Of a stretch of DNA of 64,000 nt, positions 1-53,276 are shown one piece after another. The notes beneath the pieces were generated by a model. It was not told the DNA's origin. It ran no database searches and saw nothing but the letters and a program-made list of their open reading frames with translations. Each line of letters begins with the position of its first letter. The stretch's first letter is position 1. This stretch comes from a virus (Duplodnaviria; Caudoviricetes): the IMG/VR virus record IMGVR_UViG_3300009183_000045, one strand, 5' to 3'. Both the position numbers and the translations under genes were made by a program.

Positions 1-82
1 CCGCCGTCTTCATCACTCTCGTCGCTCGCAAGCATCGCCTTTAGTCGTTGCGGTTCCCCACACAATCCTTTAATATTATTAC

Positions 83-715
83 ATGATGAAAAAAGTATAT
101 CGCAAGAAGCTCGGAGCAGTCGCCAAAGCCGCTAAGGCTAAGATCAAGGAATCCTGCGGAGGAGACCAGTTTAAGAACCTCCAGGAATGGGTGTCCTTCT
201 TCCAAGAGAATGAGCGCCTCCCGGGACAGAAGATCACCTGCTCTATCTGTAAGAAGAAGCAGACCTCGATGTTCGGAGACAATATTAAGCGCCAGATGGC
301 TAAGCCTAAGTACAAGACCATTGAGCTTCTCCTTACTAAGTTCGAATGCTCTACCTGCCGGAAGCTTAATGATCCAGTGGAGAAGCCTAAGAAGGAAAAG
401 AAGGTTAAGCTAGTCGAAGATAAGGTCTCTACGGAATACCTTACGGTGGATGAGATGGAAGATCGTAAAGAAAAGGTCCGAGCTAACCTTCCCACCTACA
501 ATCCTGACTTCAAGCCAGTGAAGATTGATTTCAATGATGCAGAGCAAGTAGGTGAGTTAACCAATGGCACCTGTCAGCGCCCTGATATCTATCTGGATTA
601 CGGATGTGCTAATTGTCATTTGGTTAAGTTCTGTAAGGCTAGCTGTTGTGTTCCTTCCCGGAGCCTGGAAAAGGGGGATCGTCTTAAGCAGAGCAAAGGT
701 CCTAAACGTAAGTAA
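83..715 (+). CDS. Early hypothetical protein, Cys-rich (CxxC motifs, probable Zn binding), Lys-rich
   Basis: 210-aa ORF starting at predicted +1 of the cassette promoter; CSIC, CSTC, CANC, CKASCC motifs. Confidence 0.8.
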   Translation: MMKKVYRKKLGAVAKAAKAKIKESCGGDQFKNLQEWVSFFQENERLPGQKITCSICKKKQTSMFGDNIKRQMAKPKYKTIELLLTKFECSTCRKLNDPVEKPKKEKKVKLVEDKVSTEYLTVDEMEDRKEKVRANLPTYNPDFKPVKIDFNDAEQVGELTNGTCQRPDIYLDYGCANCHLVKFCKASCCVPSRSLEKGDRLKQSKGPKRK

Positions 716-719
716 CCTC

Positions 720-1016
720 ATGTCCCTTGATAAAGCTATTCAACATGGAAAAGAACATCGTAAACCCTATCGTGGGGCTGCTGCTTGGGATTCTCATTGT
801 AGGAACAACAACTACTGTTCCTGGTGCAGAAGTGACAGAACCCATTCTAATCAACTTAGAGAGTATAGTAATCGAGAAGAGTCCCTGGCTTGGAACTCAG
901 AGATGGACCAAGGATCTAGCATCGCAGATCAATGGGGAGATCAATGGACCTGGATGGATGAAGAAAGATCTCCCAGCACCCAAGAGTCCTATCCTAGCTG
1001 GAGCGGTTTGAATTAA
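720..1016 (+). CDS. Small Cys/His phage protein (MSLDKAIQHGKEHRKPYRG...CRNNNYCSWC)
   Basis: In frame with track ORF 564-1016; ATG at 720 follows TAAGTA (709-714) by 5 nt; N-terminus resembles a recurrent phage family from memory. Confidence 0.65.
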   Translation: MSLDKAIQHGKEHRKPYRGAAAWDSHCRNNNYCSWCRSDRTHSNQLREYSNREESLAWNSEMDQGSSIADQWGDQWTWMDEERSPSTQESYPSWSGLN

Positions 1017-1054
1017 TAGGGACCTTCCCCCAGCCACTCTCTAATATTAATACA

Positions 1055-1465
1055 ATGAAAGACCGCATTGCATTCCTCCTCCTGATTACTTTGAGTTGTA
1101 TTAACTCAGGATGTACGACCAACCGAGTTATGGTGGATGATCATTCTTATCACCATAATGATGTTCCTCCGCAGAATACCTCGATCATCCACAATCATTA
1201 TCCCCAGCCTGTAATGATCCAGAAGCCGAGTGTCCAACAGCTTGATAGGGAGTATCTACAGTTCCAACAGAATCAGTCCCCAGTTTCCCAGGAATCAGGA
1301 AACGGTTATACTCCTCAGATGTTCCCCAATGCTAATAGGTATCCACAGGTGCAGTCTTACTTCCAACCTTACGGTAGGTCTTATGCCTATAGCCATAGCA
1401 CGCCGGGATATTCCAGCAACGTGTATGCCTATAAGGCTCATGTGAGAGCTCAACTTGGATTCTAA
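1055..1465 (+). CDS. Early putative lipoprotein, Gln/Tyr/Pro-rich low-complexity tail
   Basis: Signal peptide MKDRIAFLLLITLS-C / NSG-C lipobox-like; own cassette promoter. Confidence 0.7.
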   Translation: MKDRIAFLLLITLSCINSGCTTNRVMVDDHSYHHNDVPPQNTSIIHNHYPQPVMIQKPSVQQLDREYLQFQQNQSPVSQESGNGYTPQMFPNANRYPQVQSYFQPYGRSYAYSHSTPGYSSNVYAYKAHVRAQLGF

Positions 1466-1646
1466 GTTCCTTATGTTTCGAATGATCCTTTGGTTAGTAT
1501 TGGGACTCCTAGTTCATCTCCTCTTCCCAGACTTCACTCTCCTCGGAGTTGCCCTGGTGCTCTTCATCGGCTACGCCGCCTGGAGTCTCCACTACATCGC
1601 TCTGGTGGGACTCGCCCTCTACGGAGTCTTCACTCTCTTCTTTTAG
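1455..1646 (+). CDS. Small multi-pass membrane protein
   Basis: 63 aa, almost entirely hydrophobic; C-ending codon bias like its neighbours; start uncertain. Confidence 0.65.
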   Translation: MDSKFLMFRMILWLVLGLLVHLLFPDFTLLGVALVLFIGYAAWSLHYIALVGLALYGVFTLFF

Positions 1647-1684
1647 CGCTTGAGGTTCCCCACTAACTCCTGCATAATAGAAAC

Positions 1685-1879
1685 ATGATTAAGACCCAAG
1701 TCCATATCGTGTTCAAGGAAGCCGGTGTCTTCTCCAACGGAGGCAATGAGTTCATCGGAGTCTTCTTCGATCGGAAGTCCGCGGAGGAGTGGATCTGGCA
1801 ACGGAAGGACTCCAAGAGGTTCTTCATCGAGACCTACGAGCAGCCTGAGTCCGGGATCGCCCACGAAGTCTTTGCTTGA
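1685..1879 (+). CDS. Early hypothetical protein
   Basis: 64 aa; ATG at predicted +1 of cassette promoter. Confidence 0.8.
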   Translation: MIKTQVHIVFKEAGVFSNGGNEFIGVFFDRKSAEEWIWQRKDSKRFFIETYEQPESGIAHEVFA

Positions 1880-1910
1880 GGTTCCCCTCAGCTTCCTCTA
1901 ATATTATTAC

Positions 1911-2114
1911 ATGATGAAAAACACCATGACCACTAAAGAGCAGTTCATTAAATTGGCAGAAGCAGAGGGCCTTGATAAGGTACTTTTGAATGATTATATC
2001 ATTGAGTCAGAAGATCAAGAGGGTATTGAATATTGGGATAGTTTTGAAAGTGCAGAAGAAGCATTGGGTGATTTGAAAGTGTATATTCAATTTGCAGAGC
2101 CCACGGCGGAATAA
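1911..2114 (+). CDS. Early acidic hypothetical protein
   Basis: 67 aa; ATG at predicted +1. Confidence 0.8.
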   Translation: MMKNTMTTKEQFIKLAEAEGLDKVLLNDYIIESEDQEGIEYWDSFESAEEALGDLKVYIQFAEPTAE

Positions 2115-2177
2115 GAGGTTTGCCCCGAGTAGGGGAATCTGGTTGAGCTTCCCCCCAACGTCCGTTAATATTATTAC

Positions 2178-2474
2178 ATGATGAAAAACAAGATGAACAC
2201 CAAGACCGAAGTCCGCGTAGCAGTCCTCCAGGCGATCGAAGCCAAGAACCCGAAGGCCATCGACTTCCGCGTCCTCGGTATCCTCACCGATGAGGAAGAA
2301 GGAACCACACACCTAGGCTTCGGGGTGAACGGAATCGCCTTCAAGACTGACTGGCTGAACACCGACTTCGTGGAAGGCCTGGCGCTGGTACAGAAGGAGA
2401 ACCTCACGACCCTCAAGCAGCTGAAGGAGCTCGACCTCCTCCTGCAGAATAGGACCACAACGATCAACCGGTAG
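2178..2474 (+). CDS. Early hypothetical protein
   Basis: 98 aa; ATG at predicted +1; strong G/C-ending codon bias. Confidence 0.85.
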   Translation: MMKNKMNTKTEVRVAVLQAIEAKNPKAIDFRVLGILTDEEEGTTHLGFGVNGIAFKTDWLNTDFVEGLALVQKENLTTLKQLKELDLLLQNRTTTINR

Positions 2475-2527
2475 TCCTGGCGGTTCCCCACTCAGTCCGT
2501 TAAGATATTAACAATCAAGAACATCAT

Positions 2528-2683
2528 ATGACCTACCAAGACCTCCTCGAAGTACTCCAGACCCTCACCCCCGAACAGCTCCAGCAGACTGTGACTGTCG
2601 AGGCTGAAGACACCATCCAACCCGATCGGCTCCGTACTGATGAAGACACCGGAGTGCTCTACTTCAAGGCGACCGTGTGCTGA
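2528..2683 (+). CDS. Early hypothetical protein, 51 aa (MTYQDLLEVLQTLTPEQLQQTV...), not in ORF track
   Basis: Read manually; follows cassette promoter 2478-2506 with a 15-nt A/C-rich leader; same codon bias. Confidence 0.75.
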   Translation: MTYQDLLEVLQTLTPEQLQQTVTVEAEDTIQPDRLRTDEDTGVLYFKATVC

Positions 2684-2746
2684 GTCTAGTGTGGCGGTTC
2701 CCCACATCCTCCTCTAAGATATATACAAGATGAATAAATAGATTAG

Positions 2747-3055
2747 ATGAAATCAAAAGACCAACAATTACTAGAAGAAGCTTACCTCAAAGTTCATGAA
2801 TCCACACACAAGAATTACTTCCAGGATGCTCTGCTCAATCCCTCACTGTATGAGCTAGTCTTGTACTCCATGAGAGATGAAGACTGGGAAGGTAATACAA
2901 TGACAGCTACAGAGGCTTCGCTGTATACAGCTGAAGGAGCCAAGGTAGACTCCCGGACCTTTGAGGAAGATAGTATCCATGCAGACGAACTTAATGATCT
3001 GATTGCTGCCTTCCAGAAGCACAATCCAGAAGGCATCTCAGACAATAGGCACTAA
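2747..3055 (+). CDS. Hypothetical protein with virion-type N-terminus (MKSKDQQLLEEAY)
   Basis: 102 aa; TAAATA at 2735-2740, 6 nt before ATG, plus an upstream early cassette. Confidence 0.75.
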   Translation: MKSKDQQLLEEAYLKVHESTHKNYFQDALLNPSLYELVLYSMRDEDWEGNTMTATEASLYTAEGAKVDSRTFEEDSIHADELNDLIAAFQKHNPEGISDNRH

Positions 3056-3117
3056 GCCGTACTTGCCCAGATCAAGTAGTCCTTGCAGTTCCCCACAACG
3101 TCCGTTAATATTATTAC

Positions 3118-3378
3118 ATGATGAATAACACATACACACGAGTCCTCAGCACGAAGCAAGTCAACGTCCTCGCCAAGGAAGCCAAGCGCGTCCAGTACAT
3201 CGTCAACAAGGTCCGCGTCTTCCATCCCTCTTCGGTGGATGCCATCACGGTGCTTGACAATGAGGACAATGCTCTGGTGTTCAAAGCCCTTCGTGCGGAC
3301 AGAGGCACCTGGGTGGTGACCTTCTCGAAGGACTACTGGCAGAGCCCAGAGGATGCCGTACTTGCCCAGGGCATCTAA
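3118..3378 (+). CDS. Early hypothetical protein
   Basis: 86 aa; ATG at predicted +1. Confidence 0.85.
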   Translation: MMNNTYTRVLSTKQVNVLAKEAKRVQYIVNKVRVFHPSSVDAITVLDNEDNALVFKALRADRGTWVVTFSKDYWQSPEDAVLAQGI

Positions 3379-3420
3379 GTAGGCCTTGCGGTTCCCCATC
3401 TCCTCTACTAATATTATTAC

Positions 3421-3678
3421 ATGATGAAGAACGACATGAACCACACCACCGCAGAAGACCACACCACCCCAATCGTCGGCGCCACCTACCTCTGGCAGGG
3501 CATGCCCTGTGCCGTCCTGGAGACGAGGCCTAGTGAGCTCAGCACCTACACGTGGGATGTGAAGGTGGAGTACTTCAGCAAGGCCGGCAAGTGCTTCCCC
3601 TCCCTCTGGACTCCGTGGCTTCCAGGATGCTTCCTCCTTACCTTCAAGCCTGGTGGTCAGCTGAGTCGAGTAGCGTAA
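3421..3678 (+). CDS. Early hypothetical protein
   Basis: 85 aa; ATG at predicted +1. Confidence 0.8.
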   Translation: MMKNDMNHTTAEDHTTPIVGATYLWQGMPCAVLETRPSELSTYTWDVKVEYFSKAGKCFPSLWTPWLPGCFLLTFKPGGQLSRVA

Positions 3679-3685
3679 GTAGTAC

Positions 3686-3850
3686 ATGACCATTAACATT
3701 GTAGAGTACGCAGGCCTCCTAGAAGACTTTGTCCAAGGCCGCATCACTAAAGAAGAGTGGTGTGCCTACTGTCAAAGGCTATTGAATGAAGAGCTTAAGG
3801 TAGAGGCCCTTAAGAGCTGTCCATGTGAAACAGACTCCAGGGTCTTTTGA
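3686..3850 (+). CDS. 54-aa hypothetical protein (MTINIVEYAGLLEDFVQGRITKEEWCAYC...), not in track
   Basis: Read manually; TAAGTA 3676-3681 just upstream of ATG. Confidence 0.55.
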   Translation: MTINIVEYAGLLEDFVQGRITKEEWCAYCQRLLNEELKVEALKSCPCETDSRVF

Positions 3851-3960
3851 CAGCGCGGGGATTTTTCGCACCGCGGTATGCAAGGACCCCGGCAGTTCAA
3901 ATACACCCTATAGTCTGAAAACGGGAATGACGGGGGGTGGGGTAATACCAGGGGGTACCA

Positions 3961-4020
3961 TCCTATATACTCCTATATACTCCTATATACTCCTATATAC
4001 TCCTATATACTCCTATATAC
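3961..4020. repeat. Perfect tandem repeat TCCTATATAC x6, flanked by inverted GGGTACC/GGTACCC
   Basis: Directly visible; inverted repeats at 3953-3959 and 4023-4029. Confidence 0.97.
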
Positions 4021-4066
4021 CCGGTACCCTATAGCTCTCCCCTTACACCCGGGGGTAAGTATTTCC

Positions 4067-4213
4067 ATGATATCCCCCTCTAAGGAAGAGCAACTCCTGG
4101 CGGCCCCTATATGGAGAGCTAAATGGCTTCTCTTCACGTGGATCGCGCGGCGAGAGATCGGATACATGGAATTTCTCTTTTTCTGGGAACTGATTAATGC
4201 TCAACCTAAGTAA
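4067..4213 (+). CDS. 48-aa Trp-rich hypothetical protein, not in track
   Basis: Read manually (MISPSKEEQLLAAPIWRAKWLLFTW...); TAAGTA about 5 nt upstream. Confidence 0.5.
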   Translation: MISPSKEEQLLAAPIWRAKWLLFTWIARREIGYMEFLFFWELINAQPK

Positions 4214-4216
4214 ATC

Positions 4217-4546
4217 ATGATGTATTACGATGGTTCCATATCTAGTAGATTAAGAGAATTACAGAAAGAGCTAGACACCTCTTATGCTCGAGTTAATTTC
4301 GTTCATGTTCTTCTTGGAGAAGCTTATAACAAAATTAAAGATCTCGAAGCAGAAAATGATCGTCTCCAGGCTTATCTCAACCCAGATATTTCTCCGGTAA
4401 ATAAAACTCTAGAAGATAACATTCCGAAGGTTCTTTCCTCCACGGAGATTGCTTCATTACCTTTAGACAAAATTACGGACAATATAGAAGAAAATATAGA
4501 ACCCGTAAAGTCGAAAAGGGTCAAGCTAGAGGCCTCTCGTAAATAA
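4217..4546 (+). CDS. Hypothetical coiled-coil protein
   Basis: 109-aa ORF, heptad-like N-half; TAAGTA upstream. Confidence 0.65.
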   Translation: MMYYDGSISSRLRELQKELDTSYARVNFVHVLLGEAYNKIKDLEAENDRLQAYLNPDISPVNKTLEDNIPKVLSSTEIASLPLDKITDNIEENIEPVKSKRVKLEASRK

Positions 4547-4595
4547 AAAATAAAAAGAGTGGAATGGAGTTCTGTTTCCTTTATTATAATTAGAT

Positions 4596-4805
4596 ATGAA
4601 TAAATCTGATTTGGAAGTAACTCTTATCAACACCGTCAAGCTTCTCCTAGACGACTCTAATGGAATCTCTGATCAAGCTTATCAGTCTCTTATGGAATTG
4701 ATTTATCTAGTATCTCCGGAGAGCAAGTCTCTAGATTATATGGCAGAGACCGAAGGCTTCAAAGGACGTAAATTCCTCAATGAAGATTTTGAATTGAATT
4801 CTTAA
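4596..4805 (+). CDS. Hypothetical protein
   Basis: 69 aa; TATAAT at 4585-4590 just upstream. Confidence 0.7.
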   Translation: MNKSDLEVTLINTVKLLLDDSNGISDQAYQSLMELIYLVSPESKSLDYMAETEGFKGRKFLNEDFELNS

Positions 4806-4808
4806 TCA

Positions 4809-4843
4809 TGGACCTTCCCCTTTAATTTTGTTATATTAATAAC
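4809..4843 (+). promoter_or_regulatory. Early cassette promoter, ATG at +1
   Basis: TGGACC, 17-bp spacer TTCCCCTTTAATTTTGT, TATATT, 6 nt, ATG 4844. Confidence 0.8.
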
Positions 4844-5554
4844 ATGAAAGAAGAAATTGAGAAAGAAGAATCGGGAGCGGGTGTTGATACTGACATTGAG
4901 GCCGGCGAGGCGAATCCTTATGTGCGAGCGGTACAGATCCTAAATAAGGCCTTTGACCACTTTAATGAAAAGTATTGTGACAACCTTTTGAAGAGACCCT
5001 TGATCACCATTCTTTCTAGAGGGAGGAAGGCTTGTCTCGGCTGGCACTGGAAAAACAAATGGAATTATCAAGACAGTCTGCACACGGAGATTATGATTGC
5101 AGCAGAAGCCTTGAGGCGTCCAGTGCCAGCTATCTTGGAGACTCTTCTCCATGAAATGGTCCATCTTTGGAATAGTCAACATGATATTCCAGATTGCAAT
5201 GCTTCTCAGTATCACAATAAGGCCTTTAAAAAGACTGCTGAGGGACGCTTTCATCTAGAGGTAGATCGGATGCCCCAACGCGGATATGCGCTGACTAGTC
5301 TTTCCGTCAAAGCAGCGGAAGATGTCCAGAATTTTATTGATCAAGAACAAGTAGGAGATTTTCGTTTGGTAAGAGTACAAGAGGCCGGAAAATTAGCAGC
5401 CAATAAGCAATACATGATTAATGTTTCAGAACAAGACTTCTTTTGGTTTCAAGACACGAAAAAGACTAGTGGAATGAAATCTAAAGAGTTTATGGCTCTT
5501 CTTCGGGAGACTTATACAGATATGTATAATAATCTAGAACAAACTGGAACTTAA
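4844..5554 (+). CDS. SprT-like zinc metalloprotease domain protein
   Basis: LLHEMVH (HExxH) followed by YHNKAFK, typical SprT-like pattern. Confidence 0.8.
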   Translation: MKEEIEKEESGAGVDTDIEAGEANPYVRAVQILNKAFDHFNEKYCDNLLKRPLITILSRGRKACLGWHWKNKWNYQDSLHTEIMIAAEALRRPVPAILETLLHEMVHLWNSQHDIPDCNASQYHNKAFKKTAEGRFHLEVDRMPQRGYALTSLSVKAAEDVQNFIDQEQVGDFRLVRVQEAGKLAANKQYMINVSEQDFFWFQDTKKTSGMKSKEFMALLRETYTDMYNNLEQTGT

Positions 5555-11622: not shown

Positions 11623-11657
11623 GTGGAGTTCCCTTCTTTAGAGGTTATTATTATAAC
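11623..11657 (+). promoter_or_regulatory. Early cassette promoter
   Basis: GTGGAG, 17-bp spacer TTCCCTTCTTTAGAGGT, TATTAT at 11646. Confidence 0.75.
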
Positions 11658-11669
11658 AACATAAAAGTT

Positions 11670-11921
11670 ATGACAACAACAACAACAAACCCAAACATCG
11701 TAATCCGTAACCTCACAGACGTAACCTTCACAGATATGTGTCCTACGACTGATAAGACAACCAAGCTTCAGGCAGTTGCAGAAGCAATCAACCCCTCAAA
11801 GTACAACATCATCGGCCTAGTTGATAGGACCAATAATGTAATTCTTGAGACTCGCTTCCACAATGTTCGTGACAATAAGGGCCGCTTTGCCCGTGTGGTG
11901 GGTAATCGTCGCAAGCGTTAA
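11670..11921 (+). CDS. Small basic-tailed early protein, monocistronic
   Basis: Start reassigned to ATG 11670; C-ending codons; RDNKGRF motif; terminator follows. Confidence 0.75.
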   Translation: MTTTTTNPNIVIRNLTDVTFTDMCPTTDKTTKLQAVAEAINPSKYNIIGLVDRTNNVILETRFHNVRDNKGRFARVVGNRRKR

Positions 11922-18932: not shown

Positions 18933-19359
18933 GGGGGCGTATTGGTTTCGACTGAGCGCTGAAAACTTTAGTTGCAATCCGAGGAAGTCTGGTTGGCCTC
19001 GTTAAAATCTCTGGACAAAACAAATAAATGCAACTGATAATACAGAAGCACTCTTAGCTGAAGCAGAATATATCTTCAACAACGCTGACTCGTTCATCGC
19101 TGATGAAGAATATGCCCTAGCAGCCTAACAAACAGAAATGGATCCTATTAAAATTTTCTGGAGTAACACAATAGGTTGTAGCACCAGATCGTGTAGTGCT
19201 TTGAAAATAAAAATCGAGAGGAATTGGTTCCCTTACTAATCAATAGGTAGACCCAAAACTAGTTAACAACCTTTGGTCTTAAAATGTTAACAAAATATGA
19301 TTGTAGACGCTAAAGTCTAAGTTTTCAGGACAGGGGTTCAACTCCCCTCGCCTCCACCA
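18933..19359 (+). ncRNA. ssrA: tmRNA (SsrA), 427 nt, tag (A)ATDNTEALLAEAEYIFNNADSFIADEEYALAA*
   Basis: 5' GGGGGCGTATTGGTTTCGAC; 3' GGGGTTCAACTCCCCTCGCCTCCACCA with G.U acceptor pair; resume codon GCA 19030 after ATAAAT; tag stop at 19128 ending YALAA. Confidence 0.95.
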
Positions 19360-19381: not shown

Positions 19382-20644
19382 ATGCCTCTCAATCACCATT
19401 TCTGGAAACAAGTTACCAAAAACAAATTTGTACACAAACCTCTAAAAGAGGCATATAGTAATGTCTTGTTAAGACAGAATATAAACCATATAAAACAATT
19501 TTGTTTAGTAGAAGAATACGATTTAATTGCAGAGAGAGTTGGTTTGAATAAAATGGTTGGAGTCCAACTAGCAAAAATAATGCCGGGTTGGAGAGATGGG
19601 GGCATTAAAAATGGAGGTGCCAGACTGCAACCGCAAGATACAAAAAACAGCCCGATCCTAACGGATCAAGCTGTTAAAGATGCTGTAGAGTCTTTGGGTT
19701 ATAAATATGTAGCAAAACATATCCCAGGAGCATTTGGGTCTGCCAAAGGAGAAAAAAATAAATCTTCAAAATTTCCAACTTACGAATTAGAAGTTGATGG
19801 ATTGCCGGTTTATGTAGTATTTGGAGTTGGAGGAAATAAAGGCAATGAATTTGAGAAGAAAGCCAATGAAGAAATGGCTGCAATGAAAGGAGAACATCCT
19901 ATTCTAAAACCTTTAGTGCCGTTGATAGCTCCTGATACAATTGCGTCAGTCACTGCAAGAGCTGGCTCTACACGAAGATCCTTCACAGGCAAGGTAGAAA
20001 ACGTGAGTCAAATAATAGCCGATACTTGGGTAATAGGTGAATCTGGTAAAACTTATTTTGTTTCTTTAAAGAATACAGCAGGAGCCACTATTAGTAATCA
20101 TGGCTGTGGTGGTATCTTTAAATCCTGGGACACTGAGGGTAAATTATCTTTTGCAGCAAATGCCTTTCCTCCTTTAACAAATTTGTTCAGAGCTTTAAAT
20201 GTTAATATTGATTTATTGATTAACAATCTTCAACAATATATAAACGCCATGCAAGGAAGAGAGTGGATTCCATCTACCGTTACAGATACAATTTCAAATG
20301 GAGATTTAAATGCTTTTAAAGAAGCTGTAATGTCTTCTATTGGATACGGATATTATTATGCCAGAGAAAAATCTGGAGGAAAAATTCAATTTGAAGATCT
20401 TACTACACCAGAAAAATTATCAGAGTTTGTAGGAAATGTACAAAAAGTTGAAATAAGATATCCCTATGTTAAAGGAATGGGTCTTAGAGAAAAACGAAAG
20501 AGTTTAGATTTAATAGGCCAAACTTCTAAAGGTTGGAAATTTATATTTCAATTCCGCAATGCCTCGAGTGGTCTTATTCCCAGACAATTGAATTTGATGA
20601 TATCAGGCAACGGAACACCTGAGCAGACCCCACAAGAATCTTGA
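19382..20644 (+). CDS. Late protein, possible PD-(D/E)xK nuclease-like fold
   Basis: IIADTWV...YFVSLK resembles D-x-(S/E)xK endonuclease core; TAAATA 19370-19375. Confidence 0.45.
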   Translation: MPLNHHFWKQVTKNKFVHKPLKEAYSNVLLRQNINHIKQFCLVEEYDLIAERVGLNKMVGVQLAKIMPGWRDGGIKNGGARLQPQDTKNSPILTDQAVKDAVESLGYKYVAKHIPGAFGSAKGEKNKSSKFPTYELEVDGLPVYVVFGVGGNKGNEFEKKANEEMAAMKGEHPILKPLVPLIAPDTIASVTARAGSTRRSFTGKVENVSQIIADTWVIGESGKTYFVSLKNTAGATISNHGCGGIFKSWDTEGKLSFAANAFPPLTNLFRALNVNIDLLINNLQQYINAMQGREWIPSTVTDTISNGDLNAFKEAVMSSIGYGYYYAREKSGGKIQFEDLTTPEKLSEFVGNVQKVEIRYPYVKGMGLREKRKSLDLIGQTSKGWKFIFQFRNASSGLIPRQLNLMISGNGTPEQTPQES

Positions 20645-20675
20645 ACTTCCCCCAATTTCTCTATAAGATTCTTGT
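20641..20675 (+). promoter_or_regulatory. Early cassette promoter
   Basis: TTGAAC, 17-bp spacer TTCCCCCAATTTCTCTA, TAAGAT; predicted +1 is 2 nt before ATG 20678. Confidence 0.8.
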
Positions 20676-20677
20676 AT

Positions 20678-20944
20678 ATGAATTGTCTGACTTGTGAATC
20701 TGATATTGAATGGGAACGCCTAGAAGCTCTGCCAGATACTATGTATTGCAGTTGCTGTGCTCGAAAAGGTGCAGGACAGAAATCCAAACCCCGAGGAGTG
20801 ATGGTCTTTGGTCAAAAGACAAACGGGGCTATTCAAATTCTTTCCGAAGACGCCCACAAGGAATGGAAAAAATATAACCCATATGGTCGTTATACTGGCA
20901 GAGGATCTGGAGTCCATCGAATGATGACTAGTTCTGCTAAATAA
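20678..20944 (+). CDS. TraR/DksA C4-type zinc-finger protein
   Basis: CLTC..IEWERLEALPDTMYCSCC matches the C4 TraR/DksA pattern. Confidence 0.8.
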   Translation: MNCLTCESDIEWERLEALPDTMYCSCCARKGAGQKSKPRGVMVFGQKTNGAIQILSEDAHKEWKKYNPYGRYTGRGSGVHRMMTSSAK

Positions 20945-27479: not shown

Positions 27480-27528
27480 TTTTTTAGTTCCCTTCCCTTA
27501 AACATCTAGTATCATACACAAAGATGTT

Positions 27529-32160: not shown

Positions 32161-33789
32161 TTAAGCGTCTAATACAAGAATATCTGTTACAAGCAGATCT
32201 TTTGCTTCCACATACCCTCGATTGTGAGTGTAAATCTTATGTTCTGGAGTGCATTGAATTGTATAACCGGTAGTTTCATCTTCAATTTCAATTAACTCTT
32301 CAGATACACCGGTCTGTGCAAACGCACTAATTAATGAGACTGCATTAGTATCTGCTGCAATATCATATGATCTAATATGTACTGTACCTTCTTGCATATA
32401 TTTTTCAAGATCTTTAATTTGAATTGTCAGGTCACCGTATATCGCGGTGCTGATATCAATTAAGGTTTCTCCAACTAAACACAGATTAGTCATAGATACT
32501 CTCTCCAAAAAGGATCCGTGTTCATTGCAATGATCAATATTCATCACATATAGGCGACCAGTTTCAGTACGTTCCTTTACAAATTGAGACATCAAAGAAC
32601 TGGCCTTCACTTTTCTCTTATAACGAATATTTTTATCTGATTCATATTTTTCATACAATTCATCAAAATGAGGAAGACCAAACGCTTCTGTCAAATCTGG
32701 TACTTCATGTGAGGAAAACAAAGTGATTGATTCATTTTTCATGAAGCGTTCATAAAAGATCTTGGAAAATTGTATCACATAATCAACTTTACGAACTCGA
32801 TTGTCTTCTGTTCCTCCGTTGTTTTTAAGAGATAAAACATCTTCTATTTCATAGTGCCAGAACGGAAAATTTACAGTAGCGCCGCCGCCACGAATTCCGT
32901 TTTGTTGACAACTTTTGACGGTGGCTTCAAATACCTTGAGAAAAGGAATTACTCCAGTGTGAATAACGCTGCCATTTTTAATTTCAGTGCCGATACCGCG
33001 AATCCTTCCAAAATTTAATCCGATTCCGTATCGCTGAGTAGTAGCAAAGCCAGCAGCAGTATTGGAACTAAAAATAGACTCCTTAGTATCATCCACATCA
33101 ATGAGGCAACACGACGCATACTGTTTAAGCAAACCGCGGATACCCGCCATTTGGGGTGTGGGTAAATTGATTTTAAATTTACTAAATCGGTCGTAGGCTC
33201 TTTTAACATATTGTAATCGGTTTTCTGGTGGATATTTCATGTAGCTCACCATGGCTGCCATCATATAGGCAAACTGGGGTGTTTCGTAAATTTCTTTGCT
33301 CTTACGATTTTGAATCAAATATTTATCACACAATTGTTTGAGGCCTGAATATGTAAAGTCATAATCTCTGTTATGAACTATCTTTTCATCTAATTTATCT
33401 ATTTCCGCCTTGGTATAGTGTTGAAGAATCTCCGGGTGATATATTTTTCTTTCAACATTGGCTTCTATAAAATCATAAAATTTCGGGGGATTTTTTCCTC
33501 CCCACACATCTTTACGCAATTGATAACTTAATAACCGAGAAGCTACCCATTGATAATTGGGATTTTCTTCATTAAAAAGATTAATAGCAGATTCTACTAA
33601 CACTTTATGGATTTCTTTAGTAGAGATACCATCTACAAGGTTTAATTTGGTATTAATTTCAATGTCTGAAATACTAACACCGGTTATTTCTTGAGTTGCC
33701 CATATAATAACTTTGTTGATGTTGTCTACATTAAAAGGAACCAAGGTACCATCTCTTTTTCTGACTTTGAGGATATTATTTTCACTCAT
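32161..33789 (-). CDS. nrdA: RNR alpha N-terminal half (ATP cone) ending in 106-aa N-intein
   Basis: VRKRDG ATP cone, LPTPQMAG, ASCCLI, QNGIRGG, SMTNL then CLVGET...CTPEHKIYT...EAKDL, stop. Confidence 0.95.
   Translation of the reverse strand: MSENNILKVRKRDGTLVPFNVDNINKVIIWATQEITGVSISDIEINTKLNLVDGISTKEIHKVLVESAINLFNEENPNYQWVASRLLSYQLRKDVWGGKNPPKFYDFIEANVERKIYHPEILQHYTKAEIDKLDEKIVHNRDYDFTYSGLKQLCDKYLIQNRKSKEIYETPQFAYMMAAMVSYMKYPPENRLQYVKRAYDRFSKFKINLPTPQMAGIRGLLKQYASCCLIDVDDTKESIFSSNTAAGFATTQRYGIGLNFGRIRGIGTEIKNGSVIHTGVIPFLKVFEATVKSCQQNGIRGGGATVNFPFWHYEIEDVLSLKNNGGTEDNRVRKVDYVIQFSKIFYERFMKNESITLFSSHEVPDLTEAFGLPHFDELYEKYESDKNIRYKRKVKASSLMSQFVKERTETGRLYVMNIDHCNEHGSFLERVSMTNLCLVGETLIDISTAIYGDLTIQIKDLEKYMQEGTVHIRSYDIAADTNAVSLISAFAQTGVSEELIEIEDETTGYTIQCTPEHKIYTHNRGYVEAKDLLVTDILVLDA
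32164..32481 (-). mobile_element. Split intein, N-terminal part (106 aa, blocks A/B)
   Basis: C1 CLVGETLI; block B TPEH; ends at stop without F/G blocks. Confidence 0.93.
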
Positions 33790-40629: not shown

Positions 40630-43107
40630 ATGTCAACAAGAACTATAACTTCACCAGGTGTACAGATTACAGAGATAGATCAGTCTCAAATTGCGCGCAA
40701 TTCAGCCGGAACAAATGTGTTTATGACCGGTTTTGCTTCTCAAGGCCCTACCGATGAGGTGGTTTACATTGGCAGCGTTTCTGAATTTGAATCCACTTTC
40801 GGCACACCTACAAATGAAGCGGAAAGATATTTGTACCATTCTGCCAGACAAGTTTTGGTTCAGTCTCCTGCCAATTTAAAGGTGACAAGAATGGCATATG
40901 GGTCAGGATCGGGAATAGGTTTTGGTAATTCTTACAGTGCTTTAGTGTTTCCTGTGAAGGGATATATTCAATCTGTTGCAAATCAATTGAGTTCAAATGT
41001 TATTAATTTTACTAATGACTCTTGGGGTGGAAGGAATGGATCTACCCCTGAACTAGCATTAAATGCATTTACACTAGACAGTATTGTATATGGTACTAGT
41101 GCTTATCATTATCAAACATTCTTTACAGATACTACAGGAAATTATAGACTTTCTATAACTGGAGCTACTAGTGCTTATACATTAACAATTAACAACAGTG
41201 CAGTTTTAAGCACTTATATTAATAATCTTCCTTCCAATTATAAGGATGCAAATTATTATGAAATTCAGCCGCCACAATCTGTGTTGTTAACTGAATCTGA
41301 ATATCAGGATGTTATATCTAATAACATTTCTTGGGATGCAAGTTATTCAGAACAAGATATAAACAGCAGTTCTAAATTAGGCCACAGTGGTATAATTGTA
41401 TTAAACCCCACAAAGGTTGCAGTGGATAATATACATCAAGGTTATTATATAGGATTTGCTGATAACAGGGATAATAATCCAGGATCAGATTTCAAGAGTG
41501 TAACCGGGGTTAAAGCTGTTGACCAAGTTTACAATAATCAATATCAAACTTTTACAAACATACCCACCAATCGTTTAAATTTTGCTTTGAGTGGTTCACA
41601 TTTAAATGTTTCTAATAGCATATCCCGCACGATGGAACAATATCCAACTGGATACGACTTTTCGTCTTCAACTTATAATGATTGCTTAACTTTGATGACA
41701 TTTAAGTTAAGAACTTCTATATATGCTCAAGACACAGTTACTTTGGATTACAGAGTCCAAGAAGGTTATACAGGTTCTTTATATAACAACAAAACCCAAA
41801 ATAATCCTAACGGAGGGGCCCCCGTTACTTTTGCATTAGAAAAAGTAGCTGCACAGAATTCAAGATCCTCTGATATGAAGGTTATAGTAAACCCGATTAT
41901 TTCTAGTACAGGAGATTGGATTTCTTCCGATGGTAAAACTCCTAAAAAATCAGTGAGGGTAAGTGATGCTGCCAGAAACATTTATTCTTTGGGTGTTTAT
42001 GTGTCTCAAACTGATACTACCAGTTGTGATATTGGAAATGTTCCTCTAAAACTTCAGAGAATTTTAAACAGACTGGATGACATGGATGAAGAAATAGATC
42101 TTATTCCTGAAGCTGGTTTAGGTACAATATGGGCAGGAGCTGCTGCTAAAAAGGCGTCTGTCTCTCCTGGCAATACTTCAGACGGTGGTTACTTTTTTGA
42201 TGAAAAGTATCCCATTTCTTCTGCTCTTATGGCAGAATTAAAAAATCAAACAGGCGGCAATGAAAGTATATTAAAGCAGAATTATGATTCAATAGTCCAG
42301 CAATTTTATACTTTTGCGGAAAAGACTCGTATGGATCATATGTTCATACCAGATCCTTTGCGTTATATTTTTGTCAATGGTCCTGATTTTAAAACCACCA
42401 AAATATCCACTTACAATTTTTCATTAGACATTTATTGGCCGTTGAAAAATCTTTTCGGAGATATTTCTTCTAGTTACGGAGCAACTTACGGCAACTGGAT
42501 CAAATTTAATGATGTTTATTCCAATCAAATGGTTTGGCTTCCAAACTCTGGTTACGTGGCTGCAGATATAGCATTTTCTTCTGCGGTTAATTTTCCGTGG
42601 TCAGCCCCTGCTGGTTTTAATAGAGGTGTATTAACCAATATTGTTGATATTGCAATTAATCCTACTCAAAAGCAAAGAGATCTATTATATAGAATTAATA
42701 TAAACCCAATTGCATATTTCCCAGGTGAAGGTTATGTTATCTACGGGCAAAAAACCTTAATGAATAAGCCATCTGCCTTTGATAGAATTAATGTTCGCAG
42801 ACTTTTCTTGACTCTTGAAAAGGTCACTAAAAATTTATTAAAATACTATGTGTTCGAACCCAACACCTTCGCCACCAGATCTAGATTAATAAATGCTTTA
42901 TCACCAACTTTTAATCAAGCAAAGGCGAATGATGGTTTATACGATTATAGAATTATTTGCGACGAAAGAAATAACACTCCAGATGTTATAGATAATAATG
43001 AATTGAAGATTTCCATTTATATACAAGCAGTGCGCACAGCTGAGTACATTTTAGCAGACTTTGTAGGCACTCGTACCGGGATAAACTTCAATGAACTAAC
43101 GTCCTAG
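40630..43107 (+). CDS. Tail sheath protein (gp18-like)
   Basis: SPGVQITEID, GPTDE, FGTP, WSAPAGFNRG, RININPI, GQKTL, DRINVRRLF, CDERNNT. Confidence 0.96.
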   Translation: MSTRTITSPGVQITEIDQSQIARNSAGTNVFMTGFASQGPTDEVVYIGSVSEFESTFGTPTNEAERYLYHSARQVLVQSPANLKVTRMAYGSGSGIGFGNSYSALVFPVKGYIQSVANQLSSNVINFTNDSWGGRNGSTPELALNAFTLDSIVYGTSAYHYQTFFTDTTGNYRLSITGATSAYTLTINNSAVLSTYINNLPSNYKDANYYEIQPPQSVLLTESEYQDVISNNISWDASYSEQDINSSSKLGHSGIIVLNPTKVAVDNIHQGYYIGFADNRDNNPGSDFKSVTGVKAVDQVYNNQYQTFTNIPTNRLNFALSGSHLNVSNSISRTMEQYPTGYDFSSSTYNDCLTLMTFKLRTSIYAQDTVTLDYRVQEGYTGSLYNNKTQNNPNGGAPVTFALEKVAAQNSRSSDMKVIVNPIISSTGDWISSDGKTPKKSVRVSDAARNIYSLGVYVSQTDTTSCDIGNVPLKLQRILNRLDDMDEEIDLIPEAGLGTIWAGAAAKKASVSPGNTSDGGYFFDEKYPISSALMAELKNQTGGNESILKQNYDSIVQQFYTFAEKTRMDHMFIPDPLRYIFVNGPDFKTTKISTYNFSLDIYWPLKNLFGDISSSYGATYGNWIKFNDVYSNQMVWLPNSGYVAADIAFSSAVNFPWSAPAGFNRGVLTNIVDIAINPTQKQRDLLYRININPIAYFPGEGYVIYGQKTLMNKPSAFDRINVRRLFLTLEKVTKNLLKYYVFEPNTFATRSRLINALSPTFNQAKANDGLYDYRIICDERNNTPDVIDNNELKISIYIQAVRTAEYILADFVGTRTGINFNELTS

Positions 43108-50399: not shown

Positions 50400-53276
50400 A
50401 TGAGTTCTGGATTAAATGAAGATGATGATTTAGATCCGGAAGATGTTTTAGTTGACGGAAAATTTTATCAAGGCAATGAAAACATCCTGAGAAAGGATGG
50501 TACTTTTAAATGGACAGATGAAATGATTGCTGATTTTAAACTCTGCAATAAAAGCATACTACATTTTGCCGAAAACCATTTTTATATAGTTTCTCTAGAC
50601 AGAGGAAAAGAAAGAATAGAATTATACAAATATCAAAAAAGACTTTTAAAGGCATTTAAGAGTAATCGTTTTAATGTAGTATTGAGTAGTCGGCAAAGTG
50701 GCAAAGCCTTGGATATTAATACCCCTATTCCTACACCTAATGGAAATGTGAAAATGGGTGATTTAAAAGACGGAGATCAAATTTACGGACTAGACGGAAA
50801 TGTATATAATGTAATCAAGGCTCATGATTTTTTATACAACAGAAATTGTTATAAAGTAATATTTGATAACGGAGAAGAAATCATAGCAGATGAAGATCAT
50901 CTATGGTTTACACAGGAAAGATTGGAAAGAAAAAAGAAATTAGCTGGTAGTGTAAAGACAACAAAAGAAATTTTAAATACATTAACTGTTGGTAGTAAAA
51001 AGGAACCAAGACATCGTATACCCATGGCCAGAAACGGAATAATGGGAAAAGAAACAAATTTACCAATAGATCCGTATGTACTCGGTTTGTGGTTAGGAGA
51101 CGGAAATACAGACGGGGCAAATATAACTGTTGGTCCACGAGATGTTGAATTTTTACTTGAAAAATTAAATAACAACAAACAGTTTAATAAAATTACTTTA
51201 TATCAATTCAAAGAACGTTTGTGGGCTATAAATCCTACTCACACAGATAAAAAACAATCTCTTTGGTCCTGTTTAAAACAAAATAATTTATTAGGAAATA
51301 AACATATACCAGAAATATATTTTAAATCCTCTAGAGAGCAGCGTTTGGAGTTATTAAAAGGTTTGATGGACTCAGATGGTTATATTTCTCCATCTGGCCA
51401 AGCTAATTTTGATAATAGTAATTTGGAATTGGGACATCAAGTCATAAAACTTGTCAGGGAATTAGGATATAGTGTTACTCACATCATACACACTCCAAAA
51501 TTTAACGGCAAAGAATGTGCGGATTCTATGAGAGTTTGTTTTAAACCTCGGGAAGAAGTAGTGAGTATACCTTATAAAAAAAATAAATTAAAATTAACAG
51601 ATGAATTAAGAAGAAATACTTGGCATTATATTAAAGAAATAATTCCAGTAGAAAGCCGGCCAGTTAGGTGTATTACGGTGGATAGTCCAGATAACCTATA
51701 TCTTTGCGGCAAATCTCTTATCCCTACTCACAACACCACAACCATTACCATATATGCGTTGTGGATTGCTTGCTTTCAAAAAGATAAAAAAATAACCATT
51801 GTTGCAAATAAAGAAGCAACTGCAAAAGAAATATTTGCAAGAGTAAAAATGGCATATGAACAATTGCCTATTTATTTAAAACCCGCTATTAAATCCTGGA
51901 GAAAGGACGGTTTTCAATTATCCAATGATTCTGAAATAAAAATTAGTACCACATCAGGATCTGCTGGCCGTGGTGGCAGTAGTAATTTGCTTATCATTGA
52001 TGAAATGGCACACTGTCCTTCTGAGGTGATGAAAGAATTGTGGAGATCCGCTATACCCATTATTACCGCTTCAACCACTTCTCAAATTGTTATTATTAGT
52101 ACTCCAAACGGAACAGATAATAAATTTTATGAATTGTGTGAAGATTCTAAAAAGAAAAATAGTTCTTGGAATCTAGAAAGAGTTGATTGGACAGATGTTC
52201 CAGGGAGAGATGAGACTTGGAAAAAAATGACCATGGATTTGCTTGGCGGCAATGAAGACGACTTTAATCAAGAATATGGAAATGTATTCAATGTGCCTGG
52301 CAGATCTCTTTTAGATGCAAAATATCTAGAAGAACTAAAGGCTCAGTGTCCTGAACCTGTATTAGTTACGGACGAAGGGTGTTATAAGATTTTTCATTTA
52401 CCTAAACCAGAATCCTTTTATGTAATAGGTGTTGATGTTGGGGAAGGAATAGGCCGATCTAACAGTACAGCTCAGATTTTTGATGTGTCAAATCTTCAAA
52501 ATATTATACAAGTGGCTACCTATGCTGCAAATTCTATTAACCCTTATCATTTTGGGTCTAGGTTAATGAATATAATAAATGACTGGGGTAGACCTCCGGT
52601 TTTAGTGGAAAGTAATAATTATGGGCAGCAAGTATTAGATGTTTTACACCAAGCTCATAATTATGAAAACATTGTATCTTATCAAGCAACCGGAAGCAGC
52701 AAACATTATAAAACTGAACACCGGAAGGGTATTTTTAATCACACAAATACTAGATATAATGGCATTACAAATTTTAGATATTGGAGCAATAGTTTAAAAG
52801 CAGTCAAATTTAATGATCCAGAAACTTTATTTGAATTAAATTCTTTTGTAAGATTACCTAATTATACATACACCAAAAGAACCGATAAAGACTTGGATGA
52901 TAGAGTGTTTGGGTGTATTTGGGCATTGTATATTTTAATGCCGGACATAGTTTCTTCTTATTTTTACGTAAGAGAATATGATGACCAAGGCAAACCGACT
53001 AAAATTATTCCTTTAGTTGATAACAGTGATTTAATATTAAAAAGTCCACTCTTACACGGCAATGTAAGTAATATAATAAATAGTAAAAACAGAAGTGTCA
53101 ATGTTACTTCAGTTTTAATATCACCAAAAAATTCTAACACTTCTGCTTTAGATGATGAGGCAAGAGAATTGTGGAGGTGGTTACATTGTGATACTTTTAA
53201 AAGTAAAGAAGAAAATTCTTTTTTAGAAAATAAAGAAGAAACCGTTGAAGAATATAGGCCTATAATTTTATTTTAA
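50400..53276 (+). CDS. terL: Terminase large subunit (gp17-like), intein-containing
   Basis: SRQSGK|TTT Walker A, ANK, IIDEMAH, ISTPNG, FNQEY, GVDVGEG, DDRV. Confidence 0.96.
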   Translation: MSSGLNEDDDLDPEDVLVDGKFYQGNENILRKDGTFKWTDEMIADFKLCNKSILHFAENHFYIVSLDRGKERIELYKYQKRLLKAFKSNRFNVVLSSRQSGKALDINTPIPTPNGNVKMGDLKDGDQIYGLDGNVYNVIKAHDFLYNRNCYKVIFDNGEEIIADEDHLWFTQERLERKKKLAGSVKTTKEILNTLTVGSKKEPRHRIPMARNGIMGKETNLPIDPYVLGLWLGDGNTDGANITVGPRDVEFLLEKLNNNKQFNKITLYQFKERLWAINPTHTDKKQSLWSCLKQNNLLGNKHIPEIYFKSSREQRLELLKGLMDSDGYISPSGQANFDNSNLELGHQVIKLVRELGYSVTHIIHTPKFNGKECADSMRVCFKPREEVVSIPYKKNKLKLTDELRRNTWHYIKEIIPVESRPVRCITVDSPDNLYLCGKSLIPTHNTTTITIYALWIACFQKDKKITIVANKEATAKEIFARVKMAYEQLPIYLKPAIKSWRKDGFQLSNDSEIKISTTSGSAGRGGSSNLLIIDEMAHCPSEVMKELWRSAIPIITASTTSQIVIISTPNGTDNKFYELCEDSKKKNSSWNLERVDWTDVPGRDETWKKMTMDLLGGNEDDFNQEYGNVFNVPGRSLLDAKYLEELKAQCPEPVLVTDEGCYKIFHLPKPESFYVIGVDVGEGIGRSNSTAQIFDVSNLQNIIQVATYAANSINPYHFGSRLMNIINDWGRPPVLVESNNYGQQVLDVLHQAHNYENIVSYQATGSSKHYKTEHRKGIFNHTNTRYNGITNFRYWSNSLKAVKFNDPETLFELNSFVRLPNYTYTKRTDKDLDDRVFGCIWALYILMPDIVSSYFYVREYDDQGKPTKIIPLVDNSDLILKSPLLHGNVSNIINSKNRSVNVTSVLISPKNSNTSALDDEARELWRWLHCDTFKSKEENSFLENKEETVEEYRPIILF
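50706..51734 (+). mobile_element. 343-aa class 3 (Ala-start, WCT) intein with LAGLIDADG homing endonuclease
   Basis: Starts ALDINTP, block B DHLW, block F RCITV, block G PTHN|T; YVLGLWLGDG and LLKGLMDSDG. Confidence 0.92.

Follow-up and report, generated by a model that had tools for sequence, protein, structure and literature searches.

Uncultured T4-like phages of fresh water probably fire their early genes from a small, many times repeated promoter cassette that would set the first nucleotide of the mRNA on the start codon itself, or within a few nucleotides of it. The cassettes were examined in a stretch of 64,000 nucleotides from IMG/VR virus record IMGVR_UViG_3300009183_000045 (Duplodnaviria; Caudoviricetes), which is a portion of the genome of an uncultured freshwater T4-like myovirus; this whole stretch is referred to as "the window". 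The reading favored here, at a probability of about 0.68, is that the cassettes are σ70-type early promoters of a T4-like phage with +1 on ATG, that their mRNAs are leaderless, and that the repeats serve at the same time as homology for the shuffling of genes. The argument sets out from what is directly observed (the geometry of the sequence, its conservation, its linkage to open reading frames (ORFs), a footprint of recombination, and codon bias) and proceeds to promoter activity, start site, leaderless translation and timing, which we infer from it.

The proposed anatomy is the following. The cassette would begin at the stop codon of the upstream gene; a weak -35 element, (T/G)(T/G)G, an invariant TTCCCC at -29 to -24, a C-rich spacer with T at -17 and C at -16, a -10 element TA(A/T)(G/T)AT, the sequence NNNNAC and, finally, ATG(ATG)AA would follow in that order. 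Host RNA polymerase is proposed to start at the A lying 7 bp past the -10 element. This initiating A would be the A of the start codon in ~70% of the copies and lie 1-3 nt ahead of ATG in most of the others; the resulting leaderless mRNAs would be translated by 5'-AUG-dependent initiation. TTCCCC would be an additional, position-locked determinant of these pre-replicative promoters, and the ~50 conserved bp would supply the homology for inserting, deleting and reordering ORFan genes, much as the promoter-early stem-loop (PeSL) cassettes do in the T4-type coliphages.

The first-pass annotation of the window had listed twelve copies, nine of them within 48-3420 and three outlying, all with a 17-bp spacer opening with TTCCC. 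Twelve of twelve are present with this geometry (Table 1), and their -10 hexamers are TAATAT, TAAGAT, CATAAT, TATATT or TATTAT. In 7 of the 12, ATG follows the -10 element by exactly 6 nt, as had been claimed, and two more have the 1-2-nt leaders that had been noted; the remaining three have wider gaps. The hexamer that precedes the spacer is variable, but its first triplet ends in G (TTGCGG, TTGAGG, TGGCGG, GGGACC and others). Two looser additional copies lie at 27493 (+) and 38636 (-). Chance does not readily generate such an array: TTCCC-N12-NANNNT-N6-ATG matches the window 7 times against an expectation of 0.27, a count equalled in 0 of 100 shuffles, and TTCCCC-N10-13-WAWDAT matches it 9 times against 1.36 expected.

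A wider motif scan, suggested at that earlier stage, greatly enlarged the family: the cassette recurs ~220 times in ~35 freshwater phage contigs (a scan of metagenomes found it in 49 stretches from ~35 lake contigs; the window and the fetched loci L001-L057 together hold ~220 distinct cassettes after removal of duplicates). A pattern scan of IMG/VR led to a relative of 227 kb, 100% complete by CheckV, in which the strict pattern has 38 sites and its reversed control none; 35 of the 38 share one strand and lie between 47 and 110 kb, and 24 of the 38 are packed into 15 kb. The cassette pattern (with ATGATG) has 0 matches among 185,579 bacterial and archaeal genomes.

Alignments built on the elements under study invite circularity, which was removed in two ways: by anchoring on TTCCCC and ATG alone, or on the -10 element and N4-AC-ATG alone. 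Under the first anchor a -10 element emerges unimposed: positions -12 to -7 of 128 unique TTCCCC-N23-ATG sites are T (116), A (127), A (101), G or T, A (124) and T (126), and the start element is similarly regular (C-1 in 120/128, A-2 in 116/128). Distances from the box to ATG fall into few classes, N23 with 128 sites, N24 with 31 and N26, which is the second ATG of ATGATG, with 112; every other offset is represented by 12 sites at most. Under the second, box-free anchor 131 of 148 sites have TTCCC at exactly -29 to -25, and none has it 1-2 bp out of register; variants of the box (TTCCTC, GTCCCC and similar) are few. Over hundreds of copies the six bases are essentially invariant (89-100%), and further conserved positions are G-33 (~92%), T-17, C-16, A-2, C-1, and +4 to +8 (ATGAA). 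The -35 and -10 elements are always 17 bp apart. The -35 element itself is less constant: TTG is present in 120 of 221 copies (54%), and the 3' half is never ACA-like.

Where would transcription start? The modal start in E. coli lies 7 bp past the -10 element (PMC5730371), and a pyrimidine-purine-pyrimidine (YRY) triplet centered at that distance captures the start in 93% of E. coli promoters (PMC12641261). In the cassettes, C-A-T at -1/+1/+2 is a YRY triplet centered 7 bp past the -10 element, and the predicted +1 coincides with the A of ATG in 168 of the 231 copies whose ATG lies 5-9 nt past the -10. Copies with 7-nt and 9-nt gaps (NNNNACA-ATG and NNNNACAAG-ATG) separate the two signals: AC-A is fixed in its distance from the -10 element, not from ATG, which implies that the initiating A is conserved independently of the start codon. 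Leaders of 0, 1 or 3 nt are accordingly predicted for these classes, with +1 probably at the A of ATG in the first. In Deinococcus-Thermus an equal -10-to-ORF distance, 6-7 bp, yields leaderless mRNAs that have been verified experimentally (PMC12340547). The earlier claim of a promoter with +1 on ATG is thus strengthened as far as position goes (the unimposed -10, the rigid 17-bp spacing, the YRY triplet) and stays a prediction at the level of RNA. (A technical note: contigs matching 1-5000 in four public data sets, three of DNA and one a metatranscriptome (X12), were considered as evidence on start sites and rejected, because assembled contigs do not show RNA ends. Contigs of the RNA library continue through cassettes, and those that end within a cassette do what a repeat would lead one to expect, so that no conclusion is drawn from them; the joints of relatives' contigs against the window are mostly inside cassettes, where the aligner can hop between repeat copies, and the clean comparison with contig L029 is relied on instead.)

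The ATGs of the cassettes have the properties of genuine start codons. They open ORFs of at least 30 codons in 220 of 231 copies, and all starts are ATG; where the -10 element is TAATAT or TAAGAT, its TAA is an in-frame stop 12 nt upstream of ATG, so that the reading frame cannot extend further upstream; and homologous cassette proteins align from their first residues. The predicted 5' ends are rich in A, poor in G and nearly unstructured: the folding energy of the first 35 nt is -1.0 kcal/mol, compared with -5.1 in internal windows (P = 1e-68). They fit what leaderless initiation is known to require, namely an AUG at the very 5' end, with no nucleotides added, and little structure (PMC8459731). 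The proposal of leaderless early mRNAs, made at the outset from twelve copies, has gained in sequence logic (ATGs linked to reading frames, a geometry kept in ~220 copies), its start sites being predicted rather than mapped.

Leaderless translation would demand one promoter per gene because only the first cistron of a transcript has a 5'-terminal AUG. Leaderless mRNAs would therefore explain why almost every small gene of the array has a promoter of its own, and also why the few promoterless genes begin no more than 8 nt past the preceding stop. Nine genes in 1-3900 have their own cassette and three do not; the latter are presumed to be translationally coupled to their upstream neighbors. Packing is tight: an intergenic space that holds a cassette can shrink to 31 nt, with the upstream TGA lying within the -35 hexamer, and the stop of the upstream gene lies exactly 3 nt ahead of the -35 in 100 cassettes out of 221. 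No terminator-like sites are predicted on the plus strand in 1-5200. A leaderless layout seems to extend beyond the early class to the genome at large: SD enrichment is seen nowhere, and late-type TAA(A/G)TA boxes stand 3-8 nt ahead of 27 of 83 crude ORF starts in the window. One such box, TAAATA at 2735-2740, overlaps the mini-ORF of cassette 7 and lies 6 nt ahead of ATG 2747, so that gene 2747-3055 apparently carries both an early and a late promoter.

Could the TAAGAT-ATATAC block be something else altogether, an A/U-rich ribosome landing site that works independently of a Shine-Dalgarno (SD) sequence on long polycistronic mRNAs that are not leaderless? In a phage that lacks SD sequences everywhere, internal cistrons need some A/U-rich initiation signal, and the lack of terminators between cassettes would suit long transcripts. 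Yet the block has the signature of a σ70 -10 element, in which A-11 and T-7 hardly vary while the middle of the hexamer is free to do so; an exact 17-bp distance to a TTG-type element lacks a ribosomal rationale; AC-A follows the -10 rather than ATG in the copies with 7-nt and 9-nt gaps; and the array genes that have no cassette lack the block and adjoin the upstream stop instead. A ribosome landing site is, on balance, very unlikely.

Several observations nevertheless weigh against promoters that start on ATG. 1) By the standard of the E. coli consensus the cassettes are only moderate promoters, scoring 7-9/12, and of the ten in 1-5200 no more than two reach 9/12; the start-site rules applied above are likewise those of E. 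coli and may not hold in the host of this phage. 2) The first-pass annotation had noted that no SD sequence is evident. None is found at the cassettes, but this is not specific to them: the whole window lacks SD enrichment, since 6 of its 83 starts carry a core SD 4-mer where random positions would give 8.1 +/- 2.9. Absence at all 83 ORFs makes it a feature of the phage, not a marker of cassette genes. 3) The copies at 2478 and 11623 have leaders of 12-15 nt, and the copy at 2692 opens a mini-ORF only. 4) With no plus-strand terminators between cassettes, read-through transcripts bearing internal, non-leaderless copies of the genes must exist. 5) In about 19% of the cassette genes codon 5 or codon 6 is an in-frame Met, and some of these could also start there, on an A-rich leader of 12-15 nt.

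The last point had been anticipated as a caveat, and the second in-frame ATG at codon 6 is indeed found in the three genes concerned (1911, 2178 and 3421). Most cassette genes begin MMK(N), 132 of 217 having Met as their second codon, and Met is enriched ~4-fold at codons 5 and 6 (24 and 18 of 217, against a background of 2.4%), in frame only and immediately after the conserved MMKN. Some homologs of one protein have alternative N-termini derived from their cassettes, MMKKVYR and MKNKQTKSEKKVYR. Our own reading of this pattern is that the cassette may bring its own first four codons, fused in frame to what was originally the ATG of the gene.

The label "early" finds independent support in codon usage. 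Array genes (83-3850) and structural or late genes (13169-61039) differ strikingly: ATA provides 0 of 43 Ile codons in the former and 54% in the latter, TTA 2% and 51% of Leu codons, AGA 15% and 60%, AAA 24% and 78%; G+C at third codon positions is 61% in array genes and 26% in structural genes. (Overall G+C is 47-50% in the first ~3.9 kb of the window and ~35% in the remainder.) The window encodes tRNA-Arg(TCT), tRNA-Gln(TTG) and tRNA-Ser(TGA), which serve codons of the late genes. That array genes avoid exactly the codons that the phage later supplies is best explained if they are translated first, on the tRNA pool of the host; the timing itself is read from these codons. The bias points to a host with GC-rich codon usage.

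The cassette is also a recombination module, and it extends to the upstream stop and to the first codons (MMKN); neither was part of the original description. The evidence is most direct in a contig (L029) from another strain, which over 3.1 kb matches the window at 99.4-99.8% identity and yet lacks 2191-3082, a module of three genes. Its two alignments to the window overlap by the 48-nt cassette, and the cassette at the junction is chimeric, combining the -35 of cassette 5 (TTGAGC) with the spacer and first codons of cassette 8. Another contig (L015) retains the gene order of the window; in more distant relatives some genes are shared at 93-98% identity, but they are arranged differently and separated by different cassette genes. 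(Gene classification across the whole array and all loci proved too noisy for use.) Breakpoints, defined by pairs with the same downstream and different upstream genes, range from -48 to +15, that is, over the whole cassette, a spread consistent with ordinary homologous recombination across some 50 bp of shared sequence, the mechanism proposed for PeSLs (PMC2839356, PMC4122927).

This bears on the suggestion that TTCCCC is mainly a recombination signal, the crossover core of a site-specific or targeted recombinase, with its place in a promoter being incidental. The L029 crossover falls between the -35 hexamer and -23, an interval that includes the box, and the commonest single breakpoint, in 6 of 33 pairs, is at -30. 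The spread of the other breakpoints is what plain homologous recombination predicts, however, and site-specific crossover at TTCCCC was rejected on that ground; the strict register of the box to the -10 has no rationale in recombination; and T4-type recombination needs only patches of less than 50 bp (PMC2839356). A dedicated recombination signal is therefore hardly to be credited.

The closest known counterparts of the cassettes are the PeSLs of the T4-type phages RB49/phi1, T4/PST and KVP40/nt-1 (Arbiol et al. 2010, PMC2839356; Comeau et al. 2014, PMC4122927). Both are repeated σ70-like early promoters placed ahead of small ORFans in hyperplastic regions of T4-like genomes, and both offer homology for the insertion, deletion and replacement of genes, of which the three-gene indel with its chimeric cassette is an instance. 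The differences are equally plain. The present cassettes have no stem-loop or terminator (for -50 to +6 of 120 cassettes the mean z-score of the minimum free energy is -0.12, with 8/120 below -2) and no AT-rich UP (upstream promoter) region, the upstream stop being 3 nt ahead of the -35. PeSLs carry an SD sequence and start codon at their 3' end; here there is no SD, and the -10 is 6 nt from ATG. PeSLs often have GGGG...CCCC stems, in place of which these cassettes have an invariant TTCCCC box, and the present cassette reaches into the first four codons. What is new, then, is PeSL-like early-promoter cassettes fused to start codons and furnished with an invariant spacer box.

What reads TTCCCC? 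The box had been proposed as an extra promoter determinant, contacted either by host σ or by a phage activator. That it is a position-locked element stands; the choice of reader is left balanced. We give equal weight, each rather less than an even chance, to a host holoenzyme that reads the box directly or uses it structurally and to a phage-supplied protein (activator or shut-off repressor), and half as much to something else. A run of T's and then a stretch enriched in G+C generally open the spacers of bacterial promoters, whose composition can alter promoter strength up to 600-fold (PMC12641261). The cassettes share these features, with T's beside the -35, then GC enrichment, and C-A-T 7 bp past the -10 (Kuo et al. 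2025, PMC12641261), but what is a weak compositional trend in generic spacers is a set of six bases 89-100% invariant here. A direct role for the host holoenzyme is favored by these general properties of spacers and because immediate-early promoters must work before any phage protein exists; a dedicated factor is favored because six invariant, register-locked bases exceed a compositional trend, because the -35 decays, and because of the resemblance in position to the MotA box.

The middle promoters of T4 combine a MotA box at -30 with a σ70 -10 element and are read by MotA and AsiA (review PMC2988021). They share with the cassettes a short, asymmetric, register-locked element near the -35, a normal -10 and a poor -35. 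They differ in that the sequence of the box is unrelated (TGCTT in T4, TTCCCC here), that TTG at -35 is mostly retained here, that no homolog of MotA or AsiA was detected in the 227-kb relative (a weak negative), and that T4 middle mRNAs have leaders while the cassette mRNAs are predicted to be leaderless. One can thus think of the cassettes as factor-dependent promoters of the middle type, with TTCCCC at about -30 bound by a phage-encoded or virion-delivered activator acting together with a remodelled σ; the genes would then be delayed-early, not immediate-early, and the leaderless geometry would be retained. The invariance and register-locking of the box resemble those of a protein-binding site. 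The box occupies the MotA-box position, 11 bp from the -10. The degenerate -35 and the modest consensus scores point in the same direction, as do other promoters in the window that have a better -35 and no TTCCC (for example, TTGATA-16-TAATAT at 35398). On the other side, the complete 227-kb relative yielded no match to Sigma70_r4, and none to MotA_activ or AsiA (these two negatives are weak, family controls having matched nowhere); the conservation of G-33 suggests that σ region 4 probably still binds; and codon usage fitted to the host tRNA pool argues for expression from the start of infection. Promoters of the middle type are on this evidence unlikely.

TTCCCC could also be the operator of a repressor that silences the early class when late transcription begins. 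Repression of a whole temporal class usually has this layout, one short site in the spacer of every member; the late-type TAA(A/G)TA promoters lack the box; and 5 of 221 cassettes have tandem boxes (GTTCCC, then TTCCCC). But repressors seldom make do with an asymmetric site as short as 6 bp, no candidate protein was identified (the product of 83-715, for one, has no recognisable DNA-binding fold), and the tolerated decay of the -35 is left unexplained. We regard a repressor as quite improbable. A more far-reaching version of the favored scheme, in which the lineage would express nearly its whole genome leaderlessly and its early class would need the TTCCCC box at -29 together with an undescribed reader, is entertained only tentatively, as a doubtful proposition, if a somewhat better one than either protein-bound box just considered. 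Such a reader could be a new activator of the σ-appropriation type, unrelated to MotA and AsiA, or a novel base-specific contact between holoenzyme and spacer.

Leaderless transcripts are reportedly made by Thermus phage phiYS40 in its middle and late classes, as Sevostyanova et al. are said to have found in 2007. The "-10 region adjacent to ORF" genes of Deinococcus-Thermus resemble the cassette genes in having a -10 element 6-7 bp ahead of the start and neither a 5' untranslated region nor an SD sequence (PMC12340547). Those promoters and the ones of phiYS40 mostly have no -35 and no fixed spacer box, whereas the cassettes have the fixed TTCCCC; and here it is the early class of a T4-like phage of cool lakes that is concerned, with promoters that are mobile, repeated cassettes.

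The other contents of the window are consistent with its assignment to a T4-like myovirus (Table 1). DNA nearly identical to it was found in freshwater and lake metagenomes only, and no close relative turned up in the phage-genome collection searched. Of the ten array proteins tested, one is SprT-like; the other nine match no family in Pfam or PHROG. Gene 83-715 is the most widespread of the array, with 69 metagenomic homologs. Its product has two invariant four-Cys sites, C53/C56/C89/C92 and C164/C175/C178/C184, and basic N- and C-termini; the second site is a SPASM-like CX2CX5C motif; CX2CX5CX3C looks SPASM-like as well, and one automatic Joint Genome Institute (JGI) name agrees. The AlphaFold2 model (pLDDT, the predicted local distance difference test, 80) matched no PDB fold, and the protein no Pfam or PHROG family; it was considered as the reader of TTCCCC and rejected for want of a recognisable DNA-binding fold, and the idea of a WhiB-like protein was dropped. 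The array is closed by a non-coding, GC-rich gap, 3851-4066, that contains six tandem copies of TCCTATATAC at 3961-4020; it has no Rfam match at the gathering threshold, and a structured RNA at 3845-4065 was rejected (folding z = -0.12). The phage NrdA has as its sole matches in prokaryote genomes (53-54% identity) four metagenome-assembled genomes (loci L058-L061) from unrelated phyla: Planctomycetota, Hydrogenothermaceae, SAR202 and Flavobacteriales. The contigs, three of them short (6.6-10.9 kb) and the one from SAR202 152,655 bp long, may be of phage origin and have entered these genomes by binning. The promoter form TTG-N3-TTCCCC-N11-TANNNT is not enriched in these four, and in 201 Planctomycetota genomes, none of which has more than 4 matches, it does not exceed its reversed control.

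Table 1. Promoter cassettes and other features of the window. Cassette coordinates start at the first base of the -35 hexamer; the gap is the number of nt between the -10 element and ATG.
Feature	Coordinates	Strand	ATG (gap)	Remarks
Cassette 1	48-85	+	83 (6)	TTGCGG, TTCCCC, N11, TAATAT, TATTAC, ATG; gene 83-715, conserved Cys-rich ORFan
Cassette 2	1019-1057	+	1055 (7)	GGGACC, TTCCCC, N11, TAATAT, TAATACA, ATG; predicted 1-nt leader; gene 1055-1465
Cassette 3	1650-1687	+	1685 (6)	TTGAGG, TTCCCC, N11, CATAAT, AGAAAC, ATG; gene 1685-1879
Cassette 4	1876-1913	+	1911 (6)	Upstream TGA within -35 TTGAGG; 31-nt intergenic gap; gene 1911-2114, N-terminus MMKNTM
Cassette 5	2143-2180	+	2178 (6)	Gene 2178-2474; left partner in the L029 cassette-to-cassette deletion
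Cassette 6	2478-2530	+	2528 (21)	TGGCGG, TTCCCC, N11, TAAGAT, ATTAAC, then A; predicted +1 at 2513, 15-nt leader; gene 2528-2683
Cassette 7	2692-2749	+	2730 (9)	Predicted +1 at 2727; ATG opens a 3-codon mini-ORF (MNK-stop), 2730-2741; real gene 2747-3055
Cassette 8	3083-3120	+	3118 (6)	Gene 3118-3378; right partner in the L029 deletion
Cassette 9	3386-3423	+	3421 (6)	Gene 3421-3678, N-terminus MMKNDM
Cassette 10	4809-4846	+	4844 (6)	TGGACC, TTCCCC, N11, TATATT, AATAAC, ATG; gene 4844-5554, SprT-like metalloprotease
Cassette 11	11623-11672	+	11670 (18)	GTGGAG, TTCCCT, N11, TATTAT, TATAAC, then A; predicted 12-nt leader
Cassette 12	20641-20680	+	20678 (8)	TTGAAC, TTCCCC, N11, TAAGAT, TCTTGT, then A; predicted 2-nt leader; gene 20678-20944
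Array gene without own cassette	720-1016	+		Begins 4 nt past upstream stop
Array gene without own cassette	1474-1646			8-nt gap from upstream stop
Array gene without own cassette	3686-3850			7-nt gap from upstream stop
Three-gene module missing from L029	2191-3082	+		Genes 2178-2474, 2528-2683 and 2747-3055; bounded by cassettes 5 and 8
Transfer-messenger RNA (tmRNA), phage-encoded	18933-19359	+		Rfam RF00023, 136 bits; ARAGORN tag ends ...EEYALAA
NrdA with intein-like C-terminal extension (intein-bearing)	32161-33789	-
Tail sheath	40630-43107
T4-type large terminase with LAGLIDADG-type insert	50400-53276	+

If the favored reading is correct, the early genes of a T4-like phage dispense with 5' leaders and ribosome-binding sites, and the layout of the array, one promoter per gene, is explained. 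Modular shuffling of the PeSL type would then need no stem-loop. The cassettes and their genes, over 200 leaderless units in all, would be a natural collection in which to study 5'-AUG initiation, and the invariant TTCCCC would be a clean and testable handle on the step of promoter recognition. The cassette is, finally, a sequence tag by which this group of phages and its pool of accessory genes can be found in lake metagenomes.

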